From assembly GCF_964355755.1 (NCBI RefSeq), contig NC_092674.1:31806001-31870000 (forward strand): 64,000 bases of DNA. Reading direction: 5' to 3'. Shown in pieces: positions 3,944 to 53,001 of this stretch. The notes below the pieces were generated by a model. That model saw only the letters and a list, made by a program, of their open reading frames with translations. It was not told where the DNA came from and did not search any database. The translations under genes were made by a program, and so were the position numbers. Origin of the DNA: Antedon mediterranea (taxonomy: Eukaryota > Animalia > Echinodermata). The first letter of the stretch is position 1; the number at the start of each line of letters is the position of its first letter.

Positions 3944-5084
3944 GCGATTTTTTTTTTCGTACATAAGTTGGAGACCCCTCATGAAACGTCACAAAAATAC
4001 ACATGAATAATTCATCAGTTAAATTTGTTGTTCCGTGTGCACCCAAGCGTATAGCAACAAGAAGTGATTACACAAACAACTGCGATACGATTCTTTCTAC
4101 AGTAGGCCTAGGATTCTAAGTCAATTCACGTGATTGCCTTCGCGCACTATTCTTCACACAAAATGTGTCGAGTCGAGGCTAATCGACAGCTAGGCAAGAC
4201 ATTAAACTAAGTAGTAATTCATTGGACATAGCCCAAAGAAAACTTAGACCCACAAGAATAAAGAATGTGTATAATTTGTGTACTGTATTTTTTTAATTCT
4301 GCTATTTTATTATCAACAATATGCATGTACTCAAAGGAACTTTAAAAATGCGCGTATATGAACACATGAGATGGGAAGATTAGACCCACGAGAATAAAAA
4401 ATGTATTTTTGTGTAATGTTTAATGTTTAATTTTGCTGACTTATTACTCGGATTGTGTCATACCTAACACACACACGTCACACACACACACACACCCACA
4501 CAGCTACTAGACATGGGTTTAGAGACTAATAATTAGGCCTATAGTATTAATAGAAACTATAATTTTAACACGTAATTCTTTAGTAATAAATTATATTAAA
4601 AACACCATAAACTAAAGGCTGATTTTCGACAATCCACACAAAACGCCGCTATTCTTCTATGAAATCGCACGCCGCAACAACAGCGGAGATAGGCCTAGAA
4701 TCTTAAGCCTGGTTAAAATCGCTACATGACAGAGCGTAGCGATTCTATGGAAACGCTAGAGTTTATCGGGGATCTAGTACGCGTATACGATTCATCGCCG
4801 ACAAAATCGGCAAAGTTGAACATGGTTGAACTTTGCCGATTTGACTGCGATGAATCGGCGAGCCTTCCCGATTGTGTCGGCGACATCTGCGCGTGTAGCG
4901 ATTTTAATGGAAACGCTGTAGCGATTTTAATGGAAATCAGGCTTTACCGCACTTGTGTAATCACTTCTTGTTGCTATACGCTTGGGTGCACACGGAACAA
5001 GAAAATTTAACTGATGAATTATTCATGTTTATTTTGTGACGTTTCATGAGGGGGTCCCCAACTTATGTACGAAAAAAAAATCGC
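3944..5084. mobile_element. MULE-like non-autonomous TIR element, copy 1 (about 1.14 kb)
   Basis: About 130-bp TIRs starting GCGATTTTT / ending AAAAATCGC; perfect 9-bp TSD CGCCGGGCC (3935-3943, 5085-5093); near-identical inverted copy at 48849-49988. Confidence 0.9.
4706..4943. mobile_element. PIF/Harbinger-like MITE nested inside the MULE-like element
   Basis: TTA direct repeats at 4703-4705 and 4944-4946; termini AGCCTG..CAGGCT with inverted TTAAAATCGCTAC/GTAGCGATTTTAA subterminal motifs; also present in copy 2. Confidence 0.65.
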
Positions 5085-20798: not shown

Positions 20799-22166
20799 AT
20801 GATTCCACTTCCAAGGACTGGTATCCGAAACAGGAATGGTCTTATCATTGCTGGTTTTATTGGCTTCATTGGCGTAGCTCTCTATCCTATTATTGTTCAG
20901 CCATATTTCGATCCTAAACCTTGGCGTAAGTTAGTCATTTTATAATCTTCGGCCCATTCAATTCTTGTAGACTTGACACTGTAATTATCCATGAGGCACT
21001 TGCTACTGGTGGTAACATAATCATGAATGCTTTCTTGCAGAACATACACAAAATGAGGCAAGGAAGGATATAAAACAAGAAGATATTCAACCAGGAGGTA
21101 TGTATTGTACACTAAATGCTCCATAAATGTTTTAATTTCTAAATGTCTTAAATTGTAATGATATCTCTGTTGTGAAGTTAAGTTAATGTTGTGCCATAAT
21201 AGACACGTTTTGCGCTCGCGAGGTCACCGTCAGTTTGACCTTTTAGTGGGTATACAATGGTAAACAAACACAGCGAGAGTTATGTTAAAGCATGGGAGAA
21301 CTGAGAGATGATCATCTTAAAAAGCAATCGTCAAAACTAGCCTTTGATGGAATGGCATGGTAAGGATGTTATTTATTTTCTAAACTTATGTTTTATATTC
21401 ACTGTAGAATTATTTGGGCATTTGGTTCGGAATTATCGACTTTATTTATGTATTGTCATTTTTGGTTTAACACTTAAGTATTACGGTGCATTTAATACAT
21501 GTTAACTGTTGATTTTATTTACAAATGTTGCGTAAATATATTAATTATTATCTTTCATTCTTCTTCATGCTCCTATTGCATCTTCCATGTATTATGTGAT
21601 GTTCTTCGGCGCTTAAACAGACACCCAAGGCTCCTAGGCCTAGTAGACGAAGTACCGCATCAGGCAACGCCACCGGGCGGGCGGAGAGGCACGAGCACAT
21701 CGTGGACGTACCTTTCCTTGAAAAATTTCCAAGATTTTGCGCCACTATCCTTCGGAGCTGACGCAAACCACTCAGCAAGTGTTTGAAAATTAAAAACAGG
21801 AATATTATTCAGTGATTTTGTGTAGTTAAATTAACGATTTATCCAACATATACAACATTTATGATGCACCTTGCAACAAAAGCACTCGGCAGTCGCCATT
21901 TCGCTATGCTTCAACACGCACTAGGCGAGAGGTGTTCGGTTTGTTTACAAATCTATACCCACAATTTCTGATTGGTCGCGAGCGCGAAACGTGTCTATTG
22001 AGCTAACAAATTCTGTATTGTAAGTATGTTGTTGGCAATTATTTCACTTATCATATCTTCATTTTAGTCAATTTTAAGTTCTCTATGGATTTATTTTTTT
22101 CCTACTTTAGGAATGAGAGTTTGGAGCGATCCCTTTTCACCAAGAAAAGACATTCCACAGAAATGA
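20799..22166 (+). CDS. SMIM20: Small integral membrane protein 20 (MITRAC7 / phoenixin precursor) orthologue, 79 aa
   Basis: Exons 20799-20925, 21041-21097, 22111-22166 (GT-AG, 240 nt) give MIPLPRTGIRNRNGLIIAGFIGFIGVALYPIIVQPYFDPKPWQHTQNEARKDIKQEDIQPGGMRVWSDPFSPRKDIPQK; carries the SMIM20 hallmarks GF..IG.A.YPI and QED.QP.G..VWSDPF. Confidence 0.93.
21201..21996. mobile_element. ISL2EU-like internally deleted TIR element in a SMIM20 intron
   Basis: TIRs AGACACGTTTTGCGCTCGCGA / TCGCGAGCGCGAAACGTGTCT flanked by AT on both sides; minus-strand coding remnant KSWKFFKERYVHDV..HGRCNRSMKKNE. Superfamily assignment tentative. Confidence 0.7.
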
Positions 22167-23092
22167 AGGTATATAAACGAGAAAGTGAAATTATTTATTG
22201 CAAATGAATAATAAATTAAATAGGTACTGTTATGCGCAAAATGCACATACAGGCATTTAATGTTTTTGTGTATATGCAAATGAATGATAAATTATTTGTG
22301 TTGTTAGCAAAAGCAAAAGCAAAGATGAATATTCATACAGTTAGAAGAATACTAAAAAAAACATTACTTCTTAAAATAAAAATAAACAATCATGCATTTC
22401 AAGGTTGACAGAAACTGCTTAAAAAAATTGCATAATTTATTGTAAACGAATATACACGTGAATATTAAAGGGAGCAGGTATAATAATATAGATTTTAATT
22501 CATCTGCCTTTGTGCAGAATATGGCAAGCACAATTCTGAATAGAGTATACACTCTAAACTGAGATCTGGTAATACTGTACTTCATATAACAAACTGGGAT
22601 CTGGTAGGCTATACTTTATATCTATTATAAACAACTGGGATCTACAATCCATATAAAACACTGAAATCTGCTAACTAAGCTTTATGTCAAGGCGTCACTG
22701 GAATTCACTTTTTGTGTGTATGCAATAGAAAAACATATTTAAGCTAACAATTAACAGATACTATCATCATTATTACAAATTATTAAACCACTCAAAGAAC
22801 TATCTTGAAAAAAAATTTGCATATCATGCATAATATTTAATTTTATGCCTTTACAAAAAATTACATTTTACAGTACTGCCTTATTTAGAAATACTCAACA
22901 CTGTAGGCCTACACAAACAACAGTACAAAGTGTGTACCTTATTTTAATGTGATATCAATTGTATTTAATATTTGAAAGATATCGTAAATGCTGTAAATAT
23001 ATCCAATAATTGCATTATTAATGTAATGTAAGGCATTGAAATTTATATTTATACTGGGTAACCTCTACTACATTGCTAGGCCTTTGTTTGTT

Positions 23093-23400
23093 ATATATTT
23101 ATACTGGGTAACCTCTTCAGTCAAAGACTGGTCTCCCAGAGGGCCCAGTTGGTGATCAGTGGCTGTGATGTACTAATTCACCGGGGTAACCCCCTACTTG
23201 TCTCGAAAGATGTACTGCTACTAGGTTCTTTAGAGTGCACACGAGCTTGATGTGTACACTGGACCTACGGTTTATAGTCCTTACCCGAGAAAACTTGTTC
23301 TACCACCAGAACCATGGAGTGAGTGAGCTTCGAACCCCTGCCGAAGTTATGGCTAGGTAATTACGGTTCCACTGTCTTAACCGCTCGGCCACTCGCTCAC
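23093..23400 (-). mobile_element. tRNA-derived SINE with Nin/Deu-like core
   Basis: Minus strand: TGGCCGAGCGGTTAAGAC (A box), GGTTCGAAGC (B box), core GGACTATAAACCGTAGGTCCAGTGTACAC..GTGCACTCTAAAGAACC, AT-rich tail; related copy at 52235-52368. Confidence 0.8.
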
Positions 23401-23730
23401 TACACCACCATTAAACAATATCATGCAATATTGCTATTCATTTAAGATTCTTTCATGGCTATAGACAATTGAATAATATTCCACAGAACACAAAATAAAT
23501 ATTTATGTTGTTGTGGAATAAAACATAATAATCATTTGATTGATTCACACATTTAGGTAGATAGATTATTACACTTTGCATACAAAGTAAAATATAAGAG
23601 GTATATCTATTAGAAATAATGTTTTTATTAAATGCCATCATATTATAATTTATTATTTGTTTATTGATATACCTGAACATTTATTTATTTACACATTACA
23701 CTAAGGCCATGGTTAAAAAAGTTTTTGCTG

Positions 23731-24215
23731 TGCACCAGGGGCTATAGGACCTTTCTAGTGCATCAGTAACTATCAGACTTTCTGTAGTAGTGCACCAGGG
23801 GCTATAGGACCTTTCTAGTGCATCAGTAACTATATGACTTTCTGTAGTAGTGCACCAGTGGCTATAGGACCTTTCTAGTGCATCAGTAACTATATGACTT
23901 TCTGTAGTAGTGCACCAGGGGCTATAGGACCTTTCTAGTGCATCAGTAACTATATGACTTTCTGTAGTAGTGCACCAGTGGCTATAGAACCTTTCTAGTG
24001 CATCAGTAACTATATGACTTTCTGTAGTAGTGCACCAGTGGCTATAGAACCTTTCTAGTGCATCAGTAACTATATGACTTTCTGTAGTAGTGCACCAGTG
24101 GCTATAGAACCTTTCTAGTGTATCAGTAACTATCAGACTTTCTGTAGTAGTGCACCAGTGGCTATAGAACCTTTCTAGTGCATCAGTAAACTATCAGACT
24201 TTCTGTAGTCAGTGC
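23731..24215. repeat. 60-bp minisatellite, about 8 copies
   Basis: Unit TGCACCAGKGGCTATAGRACCTTTCTAGTGCATCAGTAACTATMWGACTTTCTGTAGTAG in register with the 60-nt lines. Confidence 0.97.
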
Positions 24216-24622
24216 TTATTCATCTAGTTGTACAACAGTGACAAGATTTTTTCTGCAATATTATGTAAAATTATTATATTATTTTTCTTTCATTATGCAG
24301 TTAGGCCTAGGCTATCCATCATTTCAGTTCTTCAGTGCACCTATAGGCCACCTATAGTGCACCATACAACAAAGTGACTATCTTTCCTGCAATCAGTTGC
24401 AATGACACCATATTTTGTGCGAGCAAGCTTTCAATGCTCTAAATCACATTTCTAAGTTATTTATTCCAAAACTTATTGCTATTTTAAAATTGCTTTTTTT
24501 TTTCTAATTTAATACATTTATAACCAACGTGGTCGTGTATAGTTTATTTATAAAGCCAAACACTATTGTAAACTACTGCAACTATGTTTCTTATTGTTGG
24601 AAGTATGAACTATATGGTAGTA

Positions 24623-27600
24623 TCATTTTAATAGGAGATAAAATGACCAGTACATTATATTAAATGTAATAAAGATGCAAGGAAAGAGTATCCTTGCCCA
24701 TTTATCAATGATATTAACATCTTTTATACCCGGAACCCTTATTCTTGGTCTCCGTTTATTTCTTTTTATAGGATTATTTATTTTTCTTGGACAATATACA
24801 ATGTTGTGGTTGGTCCGTCGACCATCAAGGCTTGTTTTGCGTCGATGTTTTAGGCCTAGTGTCGGTGTTCTACTTGGACCATCAAGTCCATTTAAGGTGT
24901 CCACATGAAATCCGGATTCCTCTTCTTCATCTTGCTGCTGTGAAAGACGTTTTCCTACACTTTGATTGGTCGGTATCTGTTGGGATAAAATGTTACGTCA
25001 TTCAGAAATAATTTGTTTTAATTAATTCTTAATTGTTCTTATCATAGTAACGAATGTTGTTTATTAAGTTTCTTTTTTTAATCTTTGTCTTTTTATTTAT
25101 TACTGTTTTTGTCTTGTTATGTATAGTGATAGGTTCCCGACACACCATTTTAAACTAGTGGGCACATAGTTAGTTATTTCTACTCTAGGCTAAATATTAC
25201 ATCATTTACATGCAAGTCGATCGCCATCATTTATTTGAATCTATTTATCTACACACATTTCTCATCTCCACATCGGTAATTTATTGTATTGTATTAGTAA
25301 AATTTCTAAAAAAATACTTGCTTCTGTATAATAACTATAATAGGTCGATCTTGGATTGGGTAAAATCTTTGTCTTCTCTTGTTGTTTTTTCTTTTTTTGT
25401 AGTGACCAATAACTAAAGTTGACAAGCGCGTATTCTAGGAGGGCAGCAAAGACAAAAGCGAAGCACGTGACCAGATAGATATCTATGGCTTTGATATATG
25501 AAATTCTTGGAAGTGTCTGACGGACGCTGATTGTTGTCATTGTTAATACAGTTGTGATACCTACAAAGATAAATGTTACAGATATCAAATATGTAGTTAT
25601 AATTCCACAAATATTATTGTTTAGAATACTTACAAACTGGCAATGTTGAGATCAGATTAATGTATCTAGAACAATAATATGGTTTACCCTTGATTTTAAG
25701 ATATTTTCAGGAAAGTAATATATAAGTTAGCGTTCAATAATAATTCTGTCAAAATGTCTAGTCTAGGCAATTAGCCATAATAATCGTAAACTAATTATTT
25801 AATTAAGATTATTCTTGTCATATATTTTTCCAATAATGTTTTATAAATAATATTTCTGATTGAGAAATTTACAAAATGTGTAAATATCTTTCTTGGTTTC
25901 ACTGAAGTGTACTTACTATTCCACACAAATTGTGAACGTTCATAATTATTAAGAAACATTTTCACCCAATACTCGGTGTATGTATACTTACTATTCCTCA
26001 CATTGTGAACGTTAATAATTATTAAGAAACATCTTCACCCAATACTCGGTGTATGTATACTTACTATTCCCCACACATTGTCAACGTTCATAATTATTAA
26101 GAAACATCTTCACCCAATACTCGGTGTAAGCACATGCACGAAACCATTTTTTGACTTTGCCAAATGATTATTTCATGCACTTCTGGTTAATATGAAGAAG
26201 CTCTGAAGTGTGTGGGTTAAGCTTAGATTAATGAAATAATGTGAAATTTTAATAGTTCCTTTTAGAAGATTTACCTACCATAGCATATTATGTAACAATA
26301 ATTACATAATGTTACATAGAAAGCTTTATAGTTTTACAAATCTAAAAGAAACATTTTTTAAAAAGAAAGTTTTAGTGATATGATGTTAGCCATGTTATTT
26401 AGTAATATTTTACCGAAATGAATCATTGTTGAGTTCATCCTTTGAAATAAAAACCAAAGCATTATCTGCATACTGTAGGCCTATGTTAACCCATTTAAAA
26501 ATCAAAATGACAGATAAATTGTGAATTAGTTAGCAAACTGTGCCACCACTTTAAATTAGTTATCGCGTATCCTTCAAGATATCAAAAATATCATTCAGAT
26601 TTATATTTTGATATAGTTAAATTATATATTTGCATAATTTATTTTACTAGATGATATATACTTGTATCTATGCTACGTGCTCTGGTCTTCACTTCATAAT
26701 GTTAAATAATAAGGATGTTAAAGATGAGTTTGCCTACTGAAATGTAATAGAACAAACACGCAACAGATAACACACATCTAAACAGATGAATAAGAATCAA
26801 TTGTTATTTAAATTTAGTATGAACCCCGCTACAAAATAAACATGATGCTGTTTCTTCATAAAATGGTGTATGACCTAATAAGCTCATGCAGCTGAGTGGT
26901 ACCGTTAGATTGCGCTTACCGAGGGCAACTCTAGCTGAGGTGGCTTCGTGGTTAATCCAAAAAGCAACCCACGACAATATGACGATCAGATTCGATGGAA
27001 GAAACGTTTGAAGGATGAAAAAACTTATATTTCTGCGCATCCGAAAAATTAAAGACAGGCGGGGGTACTGACCTGGATTTTGAAAGAAAAAAATATCTGT
27101 AACTTCATAAAACAAATGTTAACGACGATTCACCCGATCGTGTTACACCATTTTGATTTAAATATTAAAAACATTTTGGATTGCACGTGCGCGCCACAAA
27201 CGTAATTTAGCACTGACAACGCCATTTCAGCATTTCGCGACTTTACAACAAAAATATTTAATGAGTGTAACTCTTAGAAGGTGAATCGTCACAGCAATGT
27301 GTCGTCCTTACCAAGGGCAACCCTAGCGGCCGTAGCCTCATGGTTGATCCAGAATGCGACCCACGATAAGATTACAATCAGAGTACATGGTAGAAATGTT
27401 TGCAGTGCATGAGAGCCTATGTTACGACGCATCTGAAACGCTATGCTCAAACGCGAGTAATCACCTGAAAAGAGAGGTCAACCACTAATAACTTAACATG
27501 TTAACATTTTAATTTAACTCGCCTCTGAGTGTATCAATATACAAATTAATAATTTATAAAATTATATATAATCCGTATGTTGTGGAACACTGGTTTCGAG

Positions 27601-30600
27601 GGTTATTCTTTAATTCATTTAGTAAATACTATATTGACAATATGTTACTATACCTGTAGAAAAGTTTTGAACCTTAGCTTGAACACTATAATCAACTAAC
27701 GTAAACTGAGCCATGTCAATGTTCTCTGTACCTTCAATAGAGTTGTCACCGTACTCCCACCGATACATTATGTCTTCTGTTGTATACCCATCTAATACCA
27801 TAAAGAACAATGTATTCTTATCAATCAATCTAATTTCAAACTCTTTTCTTAAGGACCCCATTGGAAATAAGTCCTATAACTAGGACTTTCATGGGCTTTC
27901 CTTGCATCTCTAAATCTGATTTTTTATTTTACTTATTTAAATTGTATTATTAAAGATTTAGGCCTATTGTCCCTTGGAACACAGAAAAATGAAGGTCAAA
28001 ATATTCTAAATTTAAATTGGCCATATCAAAGTAATATTAAAGTTATTCACTTTAAGTCCAAAAACAACAAGTTTACGTAAGTAACAGGTAAATTAGTTTG
28101 ATTACATTTCGTCTGAAAAATCGTCGCGAGCTAAACTAAACAAAAATTTCAAACCACGAGTATGCATTATGCATATGCTAATTTGGATTGTTTACAACTC
28201 GTCACTGTTGAGAATGTGTTTTCACACAGATCGCGAGGGATTTATGATTTTATGATTATGCATACAGAGTAGCCAAACAAGCACGTTCCCATTATGGAAC
28301 ATGTTTTGATCGAAAACTTTGACTGGAAGTCAAAGTTATTTTTTGAACAAAAAAACGTCTGTGTTTTAGTTAAATGATTTTTTTTGGACTAATTTTTGGT
28401 GAAAGTTAATAACTATTATGAAACTTCAAAATGACCCACCCAGGGACAATACATCTTTAAATTGTAGTTAAGTACAAATAAAAGAGATTCAGTCAAAAAA
28501 GAATTTTAATAACAATGAAGGAACATTTTAAAAATGATTGTAATTATGTATGATATGTTTTTAGTAGACTAACTTTTAACTTGAATTTAATGTGTAATTA
28601 TGTATTTTCCCATGTCATGTATTTTGAGATGCAAATAAAACAAACCAAACTAAACCAAAACTGTGGTTGAAACAATTACAATTACAGAATTACTGTACTA
28701 ACAATTTATTTGTCGAAAACAAAATACAAAGATGGGCTTATGTTTAAATCTTGATGACTACCAAAAATCAGGTCAATCACTACATCAAGTCGAGTTTTCA
28801 AATCATTTTATAATCCTTCACATATACTTGCTTTTATATTTGTAACATGTGAACAACATTATTTACTTTATGATCTCAAACGTCATTGTCCAGTTAATTT
28901 GCTATTCCTTTCATCGTGTTTATATCAATACTTTCGTCCAAGCTTTTAGATAAAGATTAATTTAATTTGAAAATTATAAAATAATAGAATACTTTATGAT
29001 AGTTATAGTTTTAAAACATTTTATAAAATTAGAAAGCATCGCATTTGTAACGTGATTGCCTAAAGTCATCTCGTTTGAAAAACAACCATAATGTATGTCA
29101 TGTTGTGATTATGCGAACACTATAATAATAATACTTTTTATTTATCCTCCTAATACATTAAGTATGTCAGTTATTTTCTTAGAATCCATTACTTGACGTA
29201 ATGGATGAATGGATATGATATTGCATTCAGATTCAATAATCTTAACAATAGGTATACTTACAACTTTCAATTTCTAACGTACAGTTTTGTTCATCCATTG
29301 GATAATGTTGTAAGTCCATCATACACGATGCCACTGTTGTAATCCTAAAATAATCATATATATTAATGAATTAAATTACACAAATGTGACGCAACCATGA
29401 ATCATGTATCGATTGTCTTAACCAGGTGGAACATTCAGAAATCAGCTTATCATATGCATGTGGACTTTTTTGACATTCAATTAATCAATTATAAATTGTT
29501 CCATATAGGAAATGTAAAGACCGACCACTACGATAAAAAGCAATTGAACCGTTAGAAACATTCTCACATTAGTCATTAGATAGTAATTCTACATTGAACA
29601 GCATGTTAACATTTGGTTACTTAGTTTATTATAGACCATAGGAAAGGTAAAGACCGACCACTACGATAATAAAGCAATTGAACCGTTAGAAACATTCTCA
29701 CATTAGTCATTAGATAGTAATTCTACATTGAACAGCATGTTAACATTTGGTTACTTAGTTTATTATAGACCATAGGAAAGGTAAAGACCGACCACTACGA
29801 TAATAAAGCAATTGAACCGTTAGAAACATTCTCACATTAGTCATTAGATAGTAATTCTACATTGAACAGCATGTTAACATTTGGTTACTTAGTTTATTAT
29901 AGACCATAGGAAAGGTAAAGACCGACCACTACGATAATAAAGCAATTGAACCGTTAGAAACATTCTCACATTAGTCATTAGATATAGTAATTCTACATTG
30001 AACAGCATGTTAACATTTGGTTACTTAGTTTATTATAGACCATAGGAAAGGTAAAGACCGACCACTACGATAATAAAGCAATTGAACCGTTAGAAACATT
30101 CTAACACTCTCTTTCTCTGGAAACGTTTTCTGTCATTCCGACACGCTTTCCACGATTTGTTTCTATATTTCTCTGTTTTGGGCAGGATGGTTTGTTATTT
30201 TGATAATGGAGGTATAAAACTAATTTTATACCTCCATGTTGTAATAAGGTCTATATTTTTTATCTGGTTCATCCAGTTTTCTTTGGTAACCCTGGCGGTT
30301 TTTTTACTTTCTTTTCAGTTTCCTTCATTGCTTGTTTAATTGGCGTATCGTCTGGCGTATAGTATAATTATATGGCCATATAGTCCGGTGGCAGGAGGGG
30401 GGAATCACCACCCGAAAGGGGACAAATTGCCATCCAACTTTTCTAGACTAGAATTTTCCGTAGATTACGAATATGGAAGGTAATCGATCAGGATAGGAAG
30501 CGTTTTCGAGATATAAGGGGTCAAAGTTCAAAATTGACCAATTACAACAATGTATTATGTATATGTATTATAACAAATTTATTATGATGATTATAAGTGT

Positions 30601-48810: not shown

Positions 48811-51800
48811 TTTCGCGTTTCATGGTTAGGGTTAGGGTTAGCCGGGCCGCGATTTTTTTTTTCGTACATAAGTTGGGGACCCCCTCATGAAACGTCACAA
48901 AATAAACATGAATAATTCATCAGTTAAATTTTCTTGTTCCGTGTGCACCCAAGCGTATAGCAACAAGAAGTGATTACACAAGTGCGGTAAAGCCTGATTT
49001 CCATTAAAATCGCTACAGCGTTTCCATTAAAATCGCTACACGCGCAGATGTCGCCGACACAATCGGGAAGGCTCGCCGATTCATCGCAGTCAAATCGGCA
49101 AAGTTCAACCATGTTCAACTTTGCCGATTTTGTCGGCGATGAATCGTATACGCGTACTAGATCCCCGATAAACTCTAGCGTTTCCATAGAATCGCTACGC
49201 TCTGTCATGTAGCGATTTTAACCAGGCTTAAGATTCTAGGCCTATCTCCGCTGTTGTTGCGGCGTGCGATTTCATAGAAGAATAGCGGCGTTTTGTGTGG
49301 ATTGTCGAAAATCAGCCTTTAGTTTATGGTGTTTTTAATATAATTTATTACTAAAGAATTACGTGTTAAAATTATAGTTTCTATTAATACTATAGGCCTA
49401 ATTATTAGTCTCTAAACCCATGTCTAGTAGCTGTGTGGGTGTGTGTGTGTGTGACGTGTGTGTGTTAGGTATGACACAATCCGAGTAATAAGTCAGCAAA
49501 ATTAAACATTAAACATTACACAAAAATACATTTTTTATTCTCGTGGGTCTAATCTTCCCATCTCATGTGTTCATATACGCGCATTTTTAAAGTTCCTTTG
49601 AGTACATGCATATTGTTGATAATAAAATAGCAGAATTAAAAAAATACAGTACACAAATTATACACATTCTTTATTCTTGTGGGTCTAAGTTTTCTTTGGG
49701 CTATGTCCAATGAATTACTACTTAGTTTAATGTCTTGCCTAGCTGTCGATTAGCCTCGACTCGACACATTTTGTGTGAAGAATAGTGCGCGAAGGCAATC
49801 ACGTGAATTGACTTAGAATCCTAGGCCTACTGTAGAAAGAATCGTATCGCAGTTGTTTGTGTAATCACTTCTTGTTGCTATACACTTGGGTGCACACGGA
49901 ACAACAAATTTAACTGATGAATTATTCATGTGTATTTTTGTGACGTTTCATGAGGGGTCCCCAACTTATGTACGAAAAAAAAAATCGCAGCCGGGCCGGC
50001 CGATAATATCATAAATTGACCATATTACTTTTCTTCACATCTACAACACTTTCAATATTAATGTTCAAATTAATTGCAGGTTAGATATTACCAGGGGCCA
50101 AAATACTGTGTCTCTTTCTCAACCTTTTTCGGTTTGCTTTTAATATGTCTAGTTCGTCTATCTATGGCCTATAGAGAACATTACGTAACATGATGTGTAT
50201 GCCTCATAATGTACTCAGTATTATGCATGACTTTGTATTGCTGTTTAACTTTGTTAAGTGAAAATTAAGTAGCATTCAGATGAATATAAGTGGGTTTTCA
50301 GAGTAGATTTAATTACTTATAGATGAACGGCCACGTGTAAAGGTTTACTATACTGATGTGTTGAAATAGTGTTTTATTGCCAAATAGTATTTCATCGCCA
50401 TAAAGTACTTAGCCAAAATCTTTATAGACCAACAATGTACCTGTATGTGACCTAATTGTAATTTTATAATGCATGGAATTGTGCAAGGAATTAAAACTGT
50501 TTGTTTATTTATTTTACAATTTGTTGTTTAATTTGTTTCATTCGGACTTTGTGTTTTACTTGTGTCATTACCACAAGTAGGGCTCGATCTGTACAGAATC
50601 TGTCGGCAATTGGAAGGTGCTGTATCTTTTACCGATACTCGATTCAAGTAAGTTCCCACCGGGTAACACTCTTGTGCAATTGATCTCTTCACAAACAAGA
50701 CAGAAATTACAACACAGTTATACGACACAATACGTATTATTAAGATAAATCTGAATAAATAAATAAATAGGTTATGATATCATAACTTTATTTTATTTCA
50801 AAATCATTACATTAGTTTAGAATGCAGAATCAGAGTTTTTAGGCTAATTAATAATCCTTTTAGACTATTTAAGTGATTTATACTATTTAAGTGATTTATA
50901 TGAAATGGTTGTTAGTTACTGTATATCTATCCTCCTCAAGAGGATCACATTTTGGCGTTCATTATATTTATTATGATCGTTCTAACAACATGCTAGGAAT
51001 TACAATGTTGACTTGCTCTTCAATATCAGCACAATTATCGTCTTTATTAGGCTAAGATTAGCTGTTAGAAACAATTAATTAGTGCCTGGTGGTAAACGAT
51101 GTGCTGTATTACAGACAGTGTCCATTAATAACAGAGACACAACGTAATGCTCATTATTAAATATATTAGTACTTGACAACAACGGGTTAATTATTGGTAT
51201 CCTGATAAGTTACAATTAGTATTTATTCATCAATTTCTTAAACTTAGTGTTATATTCACCGTGTTTTTGTTCGAATATCACATGCATTCACATTATTTTT
51301 TTTTACAATTCGTATTCATTATTCAGGTTACATAAATAACATAGGCTATTAATGGGCGTATCATAATAACACACCAAAGTATTATTGATTGGTTAATCTG
51401 TACAACTTAGTTTAAATAAAATTATTTTCTGTGCGATGGGACTAGAAAACTTACCAATACTATTTTGAACGTAGAATGAGAGCCGATGACATCCGATTAA
51501 TTAAGTAGGGCCTATGTAGGCCCTATAGAGAATCGTTGAATCATTCAACTAATATATTTTGACTATTGTTGGACGGGAAAGTGTTTGAGGAGGCACTGGT
51601 TTATAATAAATTACTGTCCGCTAAACTGGCCTACCATGAGTGGGGTAACTTTATTACGGTAATTAAAATCATGACTTATTACGTCTTATGATTAAACTCA
51701 TTAGATTATTGTGTGTCTTCTACATTTATTAGGACGTGTATGACGTATAGTTGGCGATAAAATTAGTTAGTTTGTAACATTTTATCTATTAAATAATCGG

Positions 51801-53001
51801 AAAGAGAACGAATTTTAAACTGCCCGGTGATAATCGGTCCATCAAAGTTATTTAAGCAATACCGTATATAGAACGATATTAGCGAGTCAAATTGCCAGAA
51901 GCGATTAAACAGTGGTCGAGGGGCGCGTTTACCGTACCTAAATAACCGGCAAAAGCACTGGTCGAGGGGCGCCGTTTACCGTACCTAAATAGCCAGTCGA
52001 ATTGCCAGAAGCGGTTAAAGCACTGGTCGAGGGGCGCGCCGTTTACCGTACCTGAATAGCCGGCAAAAGCACTGGTCGAGGGGCGCCGTTTACCGTACCT
52101 AAATAGCCGATTCAAATTGCCAGAAGCGGTTAAAGCACTGGTCGAGGGGCGCCGTTTACCGTACCTAAATAGCCGGCAAAAGCACTGGTCGAGGGGCGCA
52201 GATTAACGTACTTAAATAGCCGGCAATATGGGCATGGGTTCGAGACCGACCCGCTTCTCCTTTTTCTGATGGTGAAACAAGTCTTTTCGTCTACGGATAT
52301 AAACCGATGTCCAGTGTTACACAGTGTACTCGACAGTGTGCACTTTAAGAACCCAGTTCATCTTTCGATCAACACAAACGATAATTTACTCTTACAATCC
52401 TTGGCCACATGTGCATAAAGACATACAAAATAAGATGAGGAAATCTGTGAGAATGAGAGAAGCCGCCCCAACCAAAATTCCAACTCAGAACCTTCTGTAG
52501 TATGCACATGTCTTTAACCATTTTATAATATTGAAAAGCAGAAACACTAAAACCAATGCAGCCAAGACCACGCAGAATAAATGTCATATTTAACCAGAGC
52601 GACCTTGACCTAGACTCTTCGTCCAGTCAACATTAATAATTTGGTGTATCAAAAACGTTTGACAAATCAAGCGCTAAATCTAACTATTACTAATCTCGAT
52701 AAAAATAATATTTGTGAAAAGTAGCCAACTTACCTCCGAAATCTGGTCTCAGCCTAATGTCGTAGCCCTTCATTAGATGTGTAATGTTAACGATTTTGCG
52801 ACCATTGCCAACATCTACCGTACTGAGCGCACTGTGGAGAATATCATTCGCAAAATAAATGTTGTTTCACGAAAATACTAAAACAGTTAACTGTAGCATT
52901 AAAAATGTAATATTAGGCCACATTCATAAATTATGTTACCTAGTTTGTAATATATGAGCGCTCAATGTATATATAAACATCATATGATTCGCTAACCACA
53001 T
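24623..53001 (-). CDS. Lcch3/GABRB-like: GABA-A receptor beta / Lcch3-like Cys-loop ligand-gated anion channel subunit, about 471 aa per isoform
   Basis: Exons: 53001-52940 (putative signal peptide), 52831-52734 ([13 protein letters not shown]), 40318-40251 (68 bp, [12 protein letters not shown]), 34427-34207 (221 bp, [11 protein letters not shown]), 29344-29262 (83 bp, Cys loop [15 protein letters not shown]), 27791-27654 (138 bp), alternative 27464-27312 or 27072-26920 (153 bp), 25560-25322 ([22 protein letters not shown]), 24976-24623 ([16 protein letters not shown]). 1416 nt in frame; 68/221/83/138/153 exon sizes are the known GABA-A pattern; [14 protein letters not shown] is Lcch3-like. 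First exon is less certain. Confidence 0.95.
25910..26128. repeat. About 80-bp tandem repeat, about 2.7 copies
   Basis: Repeated TACTTACTATTCC..TTGTGAACGTTCATAATTATTAAGAAACAT..CACCCAATACTCGGTGTA. Confidence 0.9.
26920..27072 (-). CDS. Alternative M1-coding exon 7b of the GABA-A beta-like gene
   Basis: 153 bp, CCAG acceptor, GTAAGC donor; [50 protein letters not shown]. Confidence 0.93.
27124..27290 (-). promoter_or_regulatory. Intronic stem-loop between the duplicated exons (candidate splicing-regulatory RNA structure)
   Basis: Nested complementary blocks GACGATTCACC 27124-27134 / GGTGAATCGTC 27280-27290; GTTACAC 27142-27148 / GTGTAAC 27265-27271; CATT 27149-27152 / AATG 27260-27263; AAATATT 27160-27166 / AATATTT 27253-27259. 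Confidence 0.7.
27312..27464 (-). CDS. Alternative M1-coding exon 7a of the GABA-A beta-like gene (not in ORF track)
   Basis: 153 bp, CTCTCTTTTCAG acceptor, GTAAGG donor; [50 protein letters not shown]. Confidence 0.9.
27954..28456. mobile_element. Kolobok-like MITE (TTAA TSD)
   Basis: TTAA flanks, termini AGAT..TATTGTCCCT / AGGGACAATACATCT; paralogous to 42276-42828 over most of its length. Confidence 0.8.
29503..30103. repeat. About 134-bp tandem repeat, about 4.5 copies
   Basis: AAAGACCGACCACTACGATAA recurs with 133-136 bp spacing. Confidence 0.95.
30105..34085 (-). mobile_element. RTE-like LINE 3' remnant split by an Academ-like insertion (pieces about 34085-34024 and 30380-30105)
   Basis: Removing 30381-34023 plus one TSD restores [36 protein letters not shown] on the minus strand. 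Confidence 0.65.
30381..34023. mobile_element. Academ-like non-autonomous DNA transposon (3.6 kb) in a receptor intron
   Basis: About 160-bp near-perfect TIRs TAGTCCGGTGGCAGGAGGGGG..; 3-bp TSD ATA (30378-30380, 34024-34026); internal roughly 155-bp tandem repeats at about 32095-32860. Confidence 0.9.
35573..35879. mobile_element. Kolobok-like MITE (TTAA TSD)
   Basis: TTAA-AGGTGTATTATCCCCT..AGGGGGACAATACATAT-TTAA. Confidence 0.7.
36394..39976 (+). mobile_element. Old Academ-like DNA transposon with decayed transposase-like remnants
   Basis: Termini TAGTGTAGGC..GCCTACACTA, 3-bp TSD TAA (36391-36393, 39977-39979), degenerate TIRs with AAAATGGCGGCC/GGCCATCTTG motifs; broken plus-strand peptides [38 protein letters not shown] at about 38850-39140. 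Confidence 0.75.
41001..41175 (-). repeat. Fragment of the tRNA-array unit 3' end flanked by (TA)n, including a long TA microsatellite (41109-41175)
   Basis: AGAACATTAATTCTAAACCGCCCGGTGATATACTGAAATTTAATTAATTAATTTGAAACGATAAAGATGA matches the reverse complement of the 14200-15515 units. Confidence 0.88.
42276..42828. mobile_element. Kolobok-like MITE (TTAA TSD)
   Basis: TTAA-AGATGTATTGTCCCTT..AAGGGACAATACATCT-TTAA, perfect terminal inversion. Confidence 0.85.
44046..44256. repeat. 35-bp minisatellite, about 6 copies
   Basis: Unit AAACAATATACTAGTAAACACAATGTGTAATCTTA. Confidence 0.95.
46489..47677. repeat. 69-bp minisatellite, about 17 copies
   Basis: Unit TCTATTTGAGTTRTAGTCATGCTATAGCGTTATAACAAACGCYAGTCTATGTTTCAGTARAGCACCAGA. 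Confidence 0.97.
48849..49988. mobile_element. MULE-like non-autonomous TIR element, copy 2 (inverted relative to copy 1)
   Basis: Near-identical reverse complement of 3944-5084 (same 94-aa ORF in the track); 9-bp TSD AGCCGGGCC (48840-48848, 49989-49997). Confidence 0.92.
51885..52225. repeat. GC-rich compound tandem repeat (about 47- and 61-bp subunits)
   Basis: Six copies of GGTCGAGGGGCGC..TTACCGTACCTAAATAGCC with alternating linkers. Confidence 0.9.
52235..52368 (+). mobile_element. Degenerate tRNA-derived SINE (same core as 23093-23400)
   Basis: GGGTTCGAGACC B box, GGATATAAACCGATGTCCAGTGT..GTGCACTTTAAGAACCCAGTTCATCTTTCGA. Confidence 0.65.

Follow-up and report, generated by a model that had tools for sequence, protein, structure and literature searches.

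The window analysed here, a stretch of 64,000 nucleotides of Antedon mediterranea DNA, carries on its minus strand a gene for a crinoid GABA-A beta-like subunit. The whole gene was located at positions 53001 to 24626 by tblastn of P0001, and the best PDB matches of exon 7b were GABA-A beta1 and beta3. Two copies of exon 7 lie between two common exons:

27654 to 27791, minus strand: exon 6, the common upstream exon of 138 nt, found by tblastn of P0001 and joined to exons 5 and 7a in run X1
27312 to 27464, minus strand: exon 7a, the divergent copy, 153 nt, phase 1-1, matching isoform X2, with a GT..AG joint from exon 6 to 7a in run X1
26920 to 27072, minus strand: exon 7b, the more beta-like copy, 153 nt, phase 1-1, matching isoform X1
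25322 to 25560, minus strand: exon 8, the common downstream exon, coding for the rest of M2 and for M3

Both copies code for the last part of the extracellular domain (beta10 in 7a), pre-M1, M1 and the start of M2. The 7a peptide is 100% identical to P0001, an Antedon mediterranea protein named GABA receptor beta-3-like isoform X2. The protein P0017 (isoform X1) has the same length and contains 7b in place of 7a. The Antedon protein cluster has 2 members with one exon-7 copy in each, and in the annotation of both Antedon and Anneissia every isoform carries one copy. Mutually exclusive duplicated pairs consist of tandem homologous exons that agree in length and phase, and this is the case here. 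The two exons are identical at 104 of 153 nt, 38 of 50 residues and 6 of 17 fourfold sites; the duplication is considered old because so few nucleotides and fourfold sites are shared. Among the 12 of 50 residues that differ are the positions aligned to G219, Y220-I222 and A248 (-2' of M2) of human beta1, so that the choice of the exon may alter the gating or the pore properties of the receptor.

Both copies are also present in Anneissia japonica (proteins XP_033112943/4), where 7a and 7b differ from those of Antedon at 2 and 1 amino acids per 50, respectively. In the tree, the 7a copies of the two species were grouped with a bootstrap support of 98/98 and the 7b copies with 97/98. A crinoid origin of the duplication was found in no more than 48% of the bootstrap trees built from the 50 residues. 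In the isoforms examined from sea urchin, sea star and sea cucumber, each lineage has a single exon-7 type, and the GSHAL motif of 7a occurred in 2 of the compared proteins, both from crinoids. A metagenome scan returned 24 loci with 38-70% identity, none near enough for a crinoid orthologue, and a search of short proteins gave 1 distant match. Duplicated M1 regions were also seen elsewhere. In L011:1392-2350, an unrelated invertebrate GABA-receptor gene, the M1 exon is duplicated as well, the second copy being split by an extra intron; the intron between the M1 copies has 532 nt and is without a strong helix (best -9.6 kcal/mol). In L020:626-1083, an M1-exon-like segment of another Cys-loop gene is present in three partial tandem copies. 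Two fish GABA-A beta2 models (P0032 and P0026) contain two identical copies of the exon-7 peptide, which are probably assembly duplicates.

Since both exons have 153 nt in phase 1-1, a message with both or with neither of them stays in frame. The donors GTATAG, GTAAGG and GTAAGC are of the U2 type. Exclusivity enforced by a frameshift and NMD or by U12 splicing was ruled out on these grounds, and the exclusion must therefore arise at splicing. Given the topology of Cys-loop receptors, the helices that follow a double M1 should come to lie inverted. No Antedon isoform with a double or a skipped exon was found in the 2 cluster members or in the 120 listed of 1660 matches. Spliced joins of exons 5-6, 6-7a and 8-9 were present in run X1, which is not on record as RNA yet holds such joins, and the 6-7a join confirms the use of the 7a acceptor. 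At the cassette, this run lists just the 6-7a join; the contigs show presence, so that the lack of 7a-7b, 6-7b, 7a-8 and 7b-8 joints in them is no evidence. An unspliced X1 contig over 7a, the intron and 7b is unreadable as intron retention because the contigs are strandless and a spliced antisense RNA is present, from which this contig may derive. This antisense transcript of the plus strand, also seen in run X1, joins 22139-22168 to 25403 and enters exon 8. Its intron (22169-25402) has canonical GT..AG ends, and a head-to-head promoter around 21950 is the likely start of the transcript. The receptor gene's intron 8 (25321-24977) is of the GC-AG kind, and the exon 8-9 join was observed in run X1.

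The exons 7a and 7b are separated by a GT..AG intron of 239 nt (27311-27073, minus strand). The initial annotation had proposed that a long stem-loop in this intron prevents the two exons from being joined. The features of the intron and its surroundings are the following:

27461 to 27474, minus strand: 7a acceptor region (pyrimidine tract, AG and first exon bases), possible alternative partner of the 5' arm with 5+6 bp
27279 to 27290, minus strand: outer helix, 5' arm (intron nt 22-33), predicted fold
27265 to 27271, minus strand: second helix, 5' arm (intron nt 41-47), pair probability 1.0 in 8/8 folds
27251 to 27263, minus strand: inner AU-rich blocks 3-4, 5' side, predicted
27142 to 27177, minus strand: 3' side of helix 2 (27148-27142) together with that of blocks 3-4, predicted fold
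27124 to 27135, minus strand: outer helix, 3' arm (intron nt 177-188), to which the 5' arm binds most strongly within the gene
27100 to 27123, minus strand: 7b branch-point candidates from motif scans, A at 27119 (-47), 27108 (-36) and 27100 (-28)
26880 to 26897, minus strand: element after 7b with TGCATG (26890-26885), 23-40 nt past the 7b donor

When the 239 nt were read again, all coordinates and distances of the initial annotation proved correct. The four co-linear complementary blocks are present. The outermost is an 11-bp Watson-Crick pair (27290-27280 with 27134-27124) that grows to 12-14 bp when G-U pairs are allowed; it is followed by 7 bp (27271-27265 with 27148-27142) and 4 bp (27263-27260 with 27152-27149). 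The fourth block can be drawn with 7 bp as before or in a 9-bp register (27259-27251 with 27177-27169), the last pair of which is broken by a variant at 27251 in run X1. The stem begins after 21 nt and is directly followed by GTTAAC (27123-27118), so that 239-167=72 nt are left. Two AGs between GTTAAC and the 7b acceptor, against which the initial annotation had cautioned, were found at -32 and -26.

The strength of the stem was tested in several ways. Folding of the whole intron against shuffled controls, the check that had been proposed for it, did not set the intron apart: the z value was -0.90 and 39 of 200 shuffles folded as well. With 46 of 2000 shuffles and 21 of 267 window tiles containing one, a perfect 11-bp stem is only mildly rare. 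What is exceptional is the energy: the outer helix had -19.3 kcal/mol compared to a shuffle mean of -9.6 +/- 2.1 kcal/mol, and an equally strong helix was observed in none of 300 shuffles and in 5 of 267 tiles. Its mean pair probability was 0.91-1.0 in 8/8 folds (4 contexts at 2 temperatures). In the control introns, the best helices reached just -6.8 and -7.1 kcal/mol. When the 5' arm was scanned over the whole 28.5-kb gene span, it bound the 3' arm with -20.7 kcal/mol and the next partner with -14.6 kcal/mol; opening of the 3' arm costs 14.9 kcal/mol.

Among 36 region pairs, which included parts of the 1.36-kb downstream intron, the 5' and the 3' third of the intron formed the strongest duplex (z -3.9). 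Two further duplexes with z < -2 were set aside as diffuse multi-segment pairings, and a predicted pairing of 7a with the region after 7b was dropped (z -0.41). A layout of docking site and selector as in Dscam was not found, the stem being the one compact helix among these 36 pairs. Nor did the arms belong to a dispersed MITE, which would have spoken against the proposal: the intron is single-copy, with no other copy in the genome contigs at 80% likeness, and in 4/4 DNA-like runs (X2-X5, one sample) a single contig with flat depth covered it. Rfam gave 0 matches up to E 1 over 26500-27900.

Conservation in Anneissia was inferred from protein: both gene models read on into the intron after exon 7. 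Read in the same frame, the Antedon intron accommodates the peptide tail that follows 7a with a minimum of 8 base changes in codons 4-17, a range that was set after the end of the homology had been seen. This register was the best of 127,916 window offsets, the next best requiring 11 changes. Of the forced changes, none hit the 18 nt that make up the 5' arms in helices 1 and 2 and 8 fell outside, a comparison to which synonymous changes are invisible. For zero arm changes given 8, the simulated P was 0.002-0.010 under uniform random substitution at rates of 0.15-0.4. The 3' arms are beyond the stop codon of the Anneissia tail, and the comparison covers the 5' arms alone. Blocks 3-4 are not conserved in register; the codons over nt 48-59 require 6 changes in 12 nt. 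The initial annotation had made its proposal depend on arms being kept where both exons are kept. In helices 1 and 2, the 5' arms are compatible with full conservation and, by this peptide comparison, look conserved in Anneissia, whereas the inner two blocks do not seem to be kept.

The first ~40 nt of the intron after 7b are conserved as well, and part of the arm signal may therefore be general conservation of the flanks. In this second intron, the 12 nt around TGCATG fit the read-through residues LHEL of Anneissia P0009 without a change. TGCATG, which we take to be an RBFOX-type motif, occurs in 10 copies in 28.5 kb. The element is a candidate for a protein-binding enhancer of 7b. The exons, their phase, the complementarity, the single-copy state of the intron and the exon 6-7a join are directly established; the stem itself is real, and it probably has a function.

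We then considered how far the 7a donor lies from the branch point of 7b. The candidate at -47 has the best match to U2 (5/6 pairs compared to 3/6) and two AGs downstream, whereas the one at -28 is at the usual position with a weaker motif match. A sequence, GTTAACAT, common to the regions upstream of 7a and 7b was not above chance (273 of 2000) and lends no support to the -47 branch. In the linear intron, the candidates near the acceptor are 193-212 nt away from the donor, and the classic feature of steric hindrance, a linear span below ~50 nt, is absent for them. When the stem is closed, the 21 nt on its donor side and the 4, 15 or 23 nt on its branch side add up to 25, 36 and 44 nt for -47, -36 and -28, respectively; for -28, the G-U extension shortens this linker to 40 nt.

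Human splicing in vitro was abolished at a donor-branch distance of 46 nt and needed ~52 nt (PMC6692369), and branch points at 25-41 nt enforce exclusivity in OGDH, with a limit of ~50 nt (PMC7969005). Modelling of the yeast A complex tolerated a stem with a linker of at least 42 nt and 20 nt or more to the branch (PMC12350175). In the same paper, a zipper stem is defined by at least 6 bp, a total linker of 42-85 nt, at least 10 nt from the donor and 20 nt or more to the branch (PMC12350175). All three candidates are below the human limits, so the caveat of the two AGs is not fatal to the proposal, with the reservation that these thresholds are from human and yeast and not from an echinoderm. 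The -28 geometry (21+23=44) just reaches the zipper-stem minimum and the -47 and -36 geometries do not. Donor-branch paths as short were found in 8%, 3% and 68% of 100 shuffles for the three candidates in silico with sampled structures. Since shuffled introns compact nearly as much, the case rests on the strength, position and conservation of the helix and not on compaction alone. To free the U2 footprint, assumed to extend from 25 nt upstream to 5 nt downstream of the branch, would cost 20.0, 18.5 or 7.5 kcal/mol, and the stem may thus also simply weaken the 7b acceptor.

The reading that we prefer, and to which we give almost an even chance, is that the stem keeps 7a from being joined to 7b because the single-stranded RNA that remains from the 7a donor to the 7b branch is too short, while proteins make the choice. 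By prediction, the two-helix stem forms ahead of the transcription of the 7b acceptor. Once closed, it would leave 25-44 unpaired nt, which should be too few for one spliceosome to span both sites, and it would also crowd the bases upstream of the branch that are covered by U2. No such limit would apply to the joins from the exon 6 donor to 7b and from the 7a donor to exon 8, since the other splice site is then far from the stem. Which of the two exons is used might be set by proteins, e.g. at the TGCATG element after 7b. Besides the steric block, the stem could also act by crowding of the 7b branch region or by competition with a second pairing. In effect, the pair would be a steric-hindrance pair, yet it lacks the short linear distance of that family, and an ATE1-type system is at most a candidate assignment.

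The second pairing is the basis of an ATE1-like switch, which we regard as unlikely. Here the 5' arm would pair either with the 3' arm, crowding the 7b branch region and so leading to the use of 7a, or with the pyrimidine tract and AG of the 7a acceptor, leading to the use of 7b, and the competition would both block double inclusion and set the 7a:7b ratio. The duplex between the 5' arm and the 7a acceptor had -20.0 kcal/mol (13 of 1000 shuffles, for a window chosen post hoc) compared to -30.3 kcal/mol for the stem. Of the gene's 7 acceptors, that of 7a was the best for the 5' arm, the next reaching -13.9 kcal/mol, and among 2846 gene windows 9 were equally good partners, including no fewer than 3 that are the 3' arm itself. 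In 12 partial transcripts, before the 3' arm is transcribed, the second pairing had a probability of 0.01-0.82, but it dropped to 0.0 with the 3' arm present (8/8 folds). Such a switch would therefore need kinetic trapping. The layout of one element with two competing partners is like that of ATE1 (PMC7797038), but the regions upstream of 7a and 7b, unlike R1 and R4 of ATE1, are not significantly alike (411 of 2000 shuffles). In the 5-bp part of the pairing, 2 of 5 nt (nt 39-40) differ in Anneissia; for this reason, and because the window was post hoc, the second pairing is ranked as a rival.

It is also doubtful that a functional stem does no more than adjust the 7a:7b ratio or offer a site to a protein, with splicing factors enforcing the exclusivity. 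The conserved TGCATG-bearing element after 7b is consistent with such a role, and so are two published cases: in exon 3 of Drosophila Rdl, protein elements are favoured and steric and competing-structure models set aside (PMC13762713), and in ATE1 one structure sets the ratio and leaves double inclusion unaffected (PMC7797038). Tuning of the ratio leaves unexplained, however, that the stem removes 167 of 239 nt and starts at nt 22, just past the region that the donor requires. We hold it to be quite improbable that the stem is incidental, e.g. a decayed inverted repeat, and that protein-binding sites close to the donor account for the 5' conservation. The whole-intron z of -0.9, the 21 of 267 tiles with an 11-bp perfect stem and the 5 of 267 with an equal helix would agree with this, but the conservation falls on paired bases, there are two co-linear helices and no other copy was found in the genome contigs at 80% likeness. 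An ordinary zipper stem that aids splicing, the 7a+7b product being an intermediate or discarded later, appears very improbable. With the branch at -28 and its 21+23=44 nt, the stem would agree with all three published criteria, but the G-U extension cuts the linker to 40 nt; a 7a+7b message would be in frame with two M1 helices, and no such isoform was present in the 2 cluster members or the 120 listed matches. Finally, the arm may be a toggle, a combination that we consider speculative and rather unlikely: the downstream pairing would be an over-tight zipper that makes the 239-nt intron unspliceable, and the upstream pairing would hide the 7a acceptor. If true, a deuterostome would by this means exchange the pre-M1, M1 and -2' pore residues in its GABA-A beta subunit, with steric exclusion made wholly by RNA folding and merged with a choice between competing structures.

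For Dscam exon 17, to which the initial annotation had compared the intron, hindrance reportedly comes from linear closeness and the RNA structure is said to tune the choice. The analogy is therefore looser than was stated. The Dscam cluster is alike in having two exons that code for a membrane helix, and the title of the paper links steric hindrance with RNA structure. The exons 2/3 of alpha-tropomyosin and 4a/4b of OGDH are duplicated in-frame exons in which a span below ~50 nt would block joining (PMC7969005, PMC6692369); there the span is short in the linear sequence, whereas the Antedon intron would be short only when the stem forms. In human ATE1 7a/7b (R1R3/R3R4), a stem lies in the intervening intron and its loss raises double inclusion (PMC7797038), and the Antedon 5' arm similarly has a possible second partner at the upstream acceptor. 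R1 and R4, however, are described there as near-copies that overlap both 3' splice sites (PMC7797038), whereas the Antedon 3' arm ends immediately ahead of the branch region and its rival pairing is ~10 kcal/mol weaker. The yeast zipper stems (RPS17B and others) leave 42-85 nt and usually aid splicing; the 25-44 nt left by the Antedon stem are at or under their limit. Insect Rdl and GluCl are likewise Cys-loop receptors diversified by duplicated exons, but other exons and other subunit classes are concerned. For exon 3 of Rdl, a donor-branch distance of 1755 nt was predicted, and protein elements were identified there instead (PMC13762713).

In a literature search that covered few subscription papers, this cassette was not described, and within the same literature no stem-created steric block was found. 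The surveys of mutually exclusive exons score steric hindrance by the linear donor-to-branch distance alone (57 of 629 human clusters). Should a stem be able to produce an equal block, it could account for some of the clusters that lack an explanation. The 7a-intron-7b cassette, with 545 nt, would be a compact minigene for testing such a block.

Several repeats were noted in and around the gene. By eye, tandem arrays were recognised at 29530-30090 in intron 5 (unit ~134 nt), at 25950-26130 in the intron after 7b (unit ~64 nt) and at 23730-24220 downstream of the gene (unit ~60 nt). Window positions 27850-28500, also in intron 5, contain a very high-copy dispersed repeat with a summed contig depth to ~1.4 million in run X2. 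A near-identical element of ~290 nt, seen in the six-frame translation, lies at 4725-5007 and 48927-49217 in opposite orientations.
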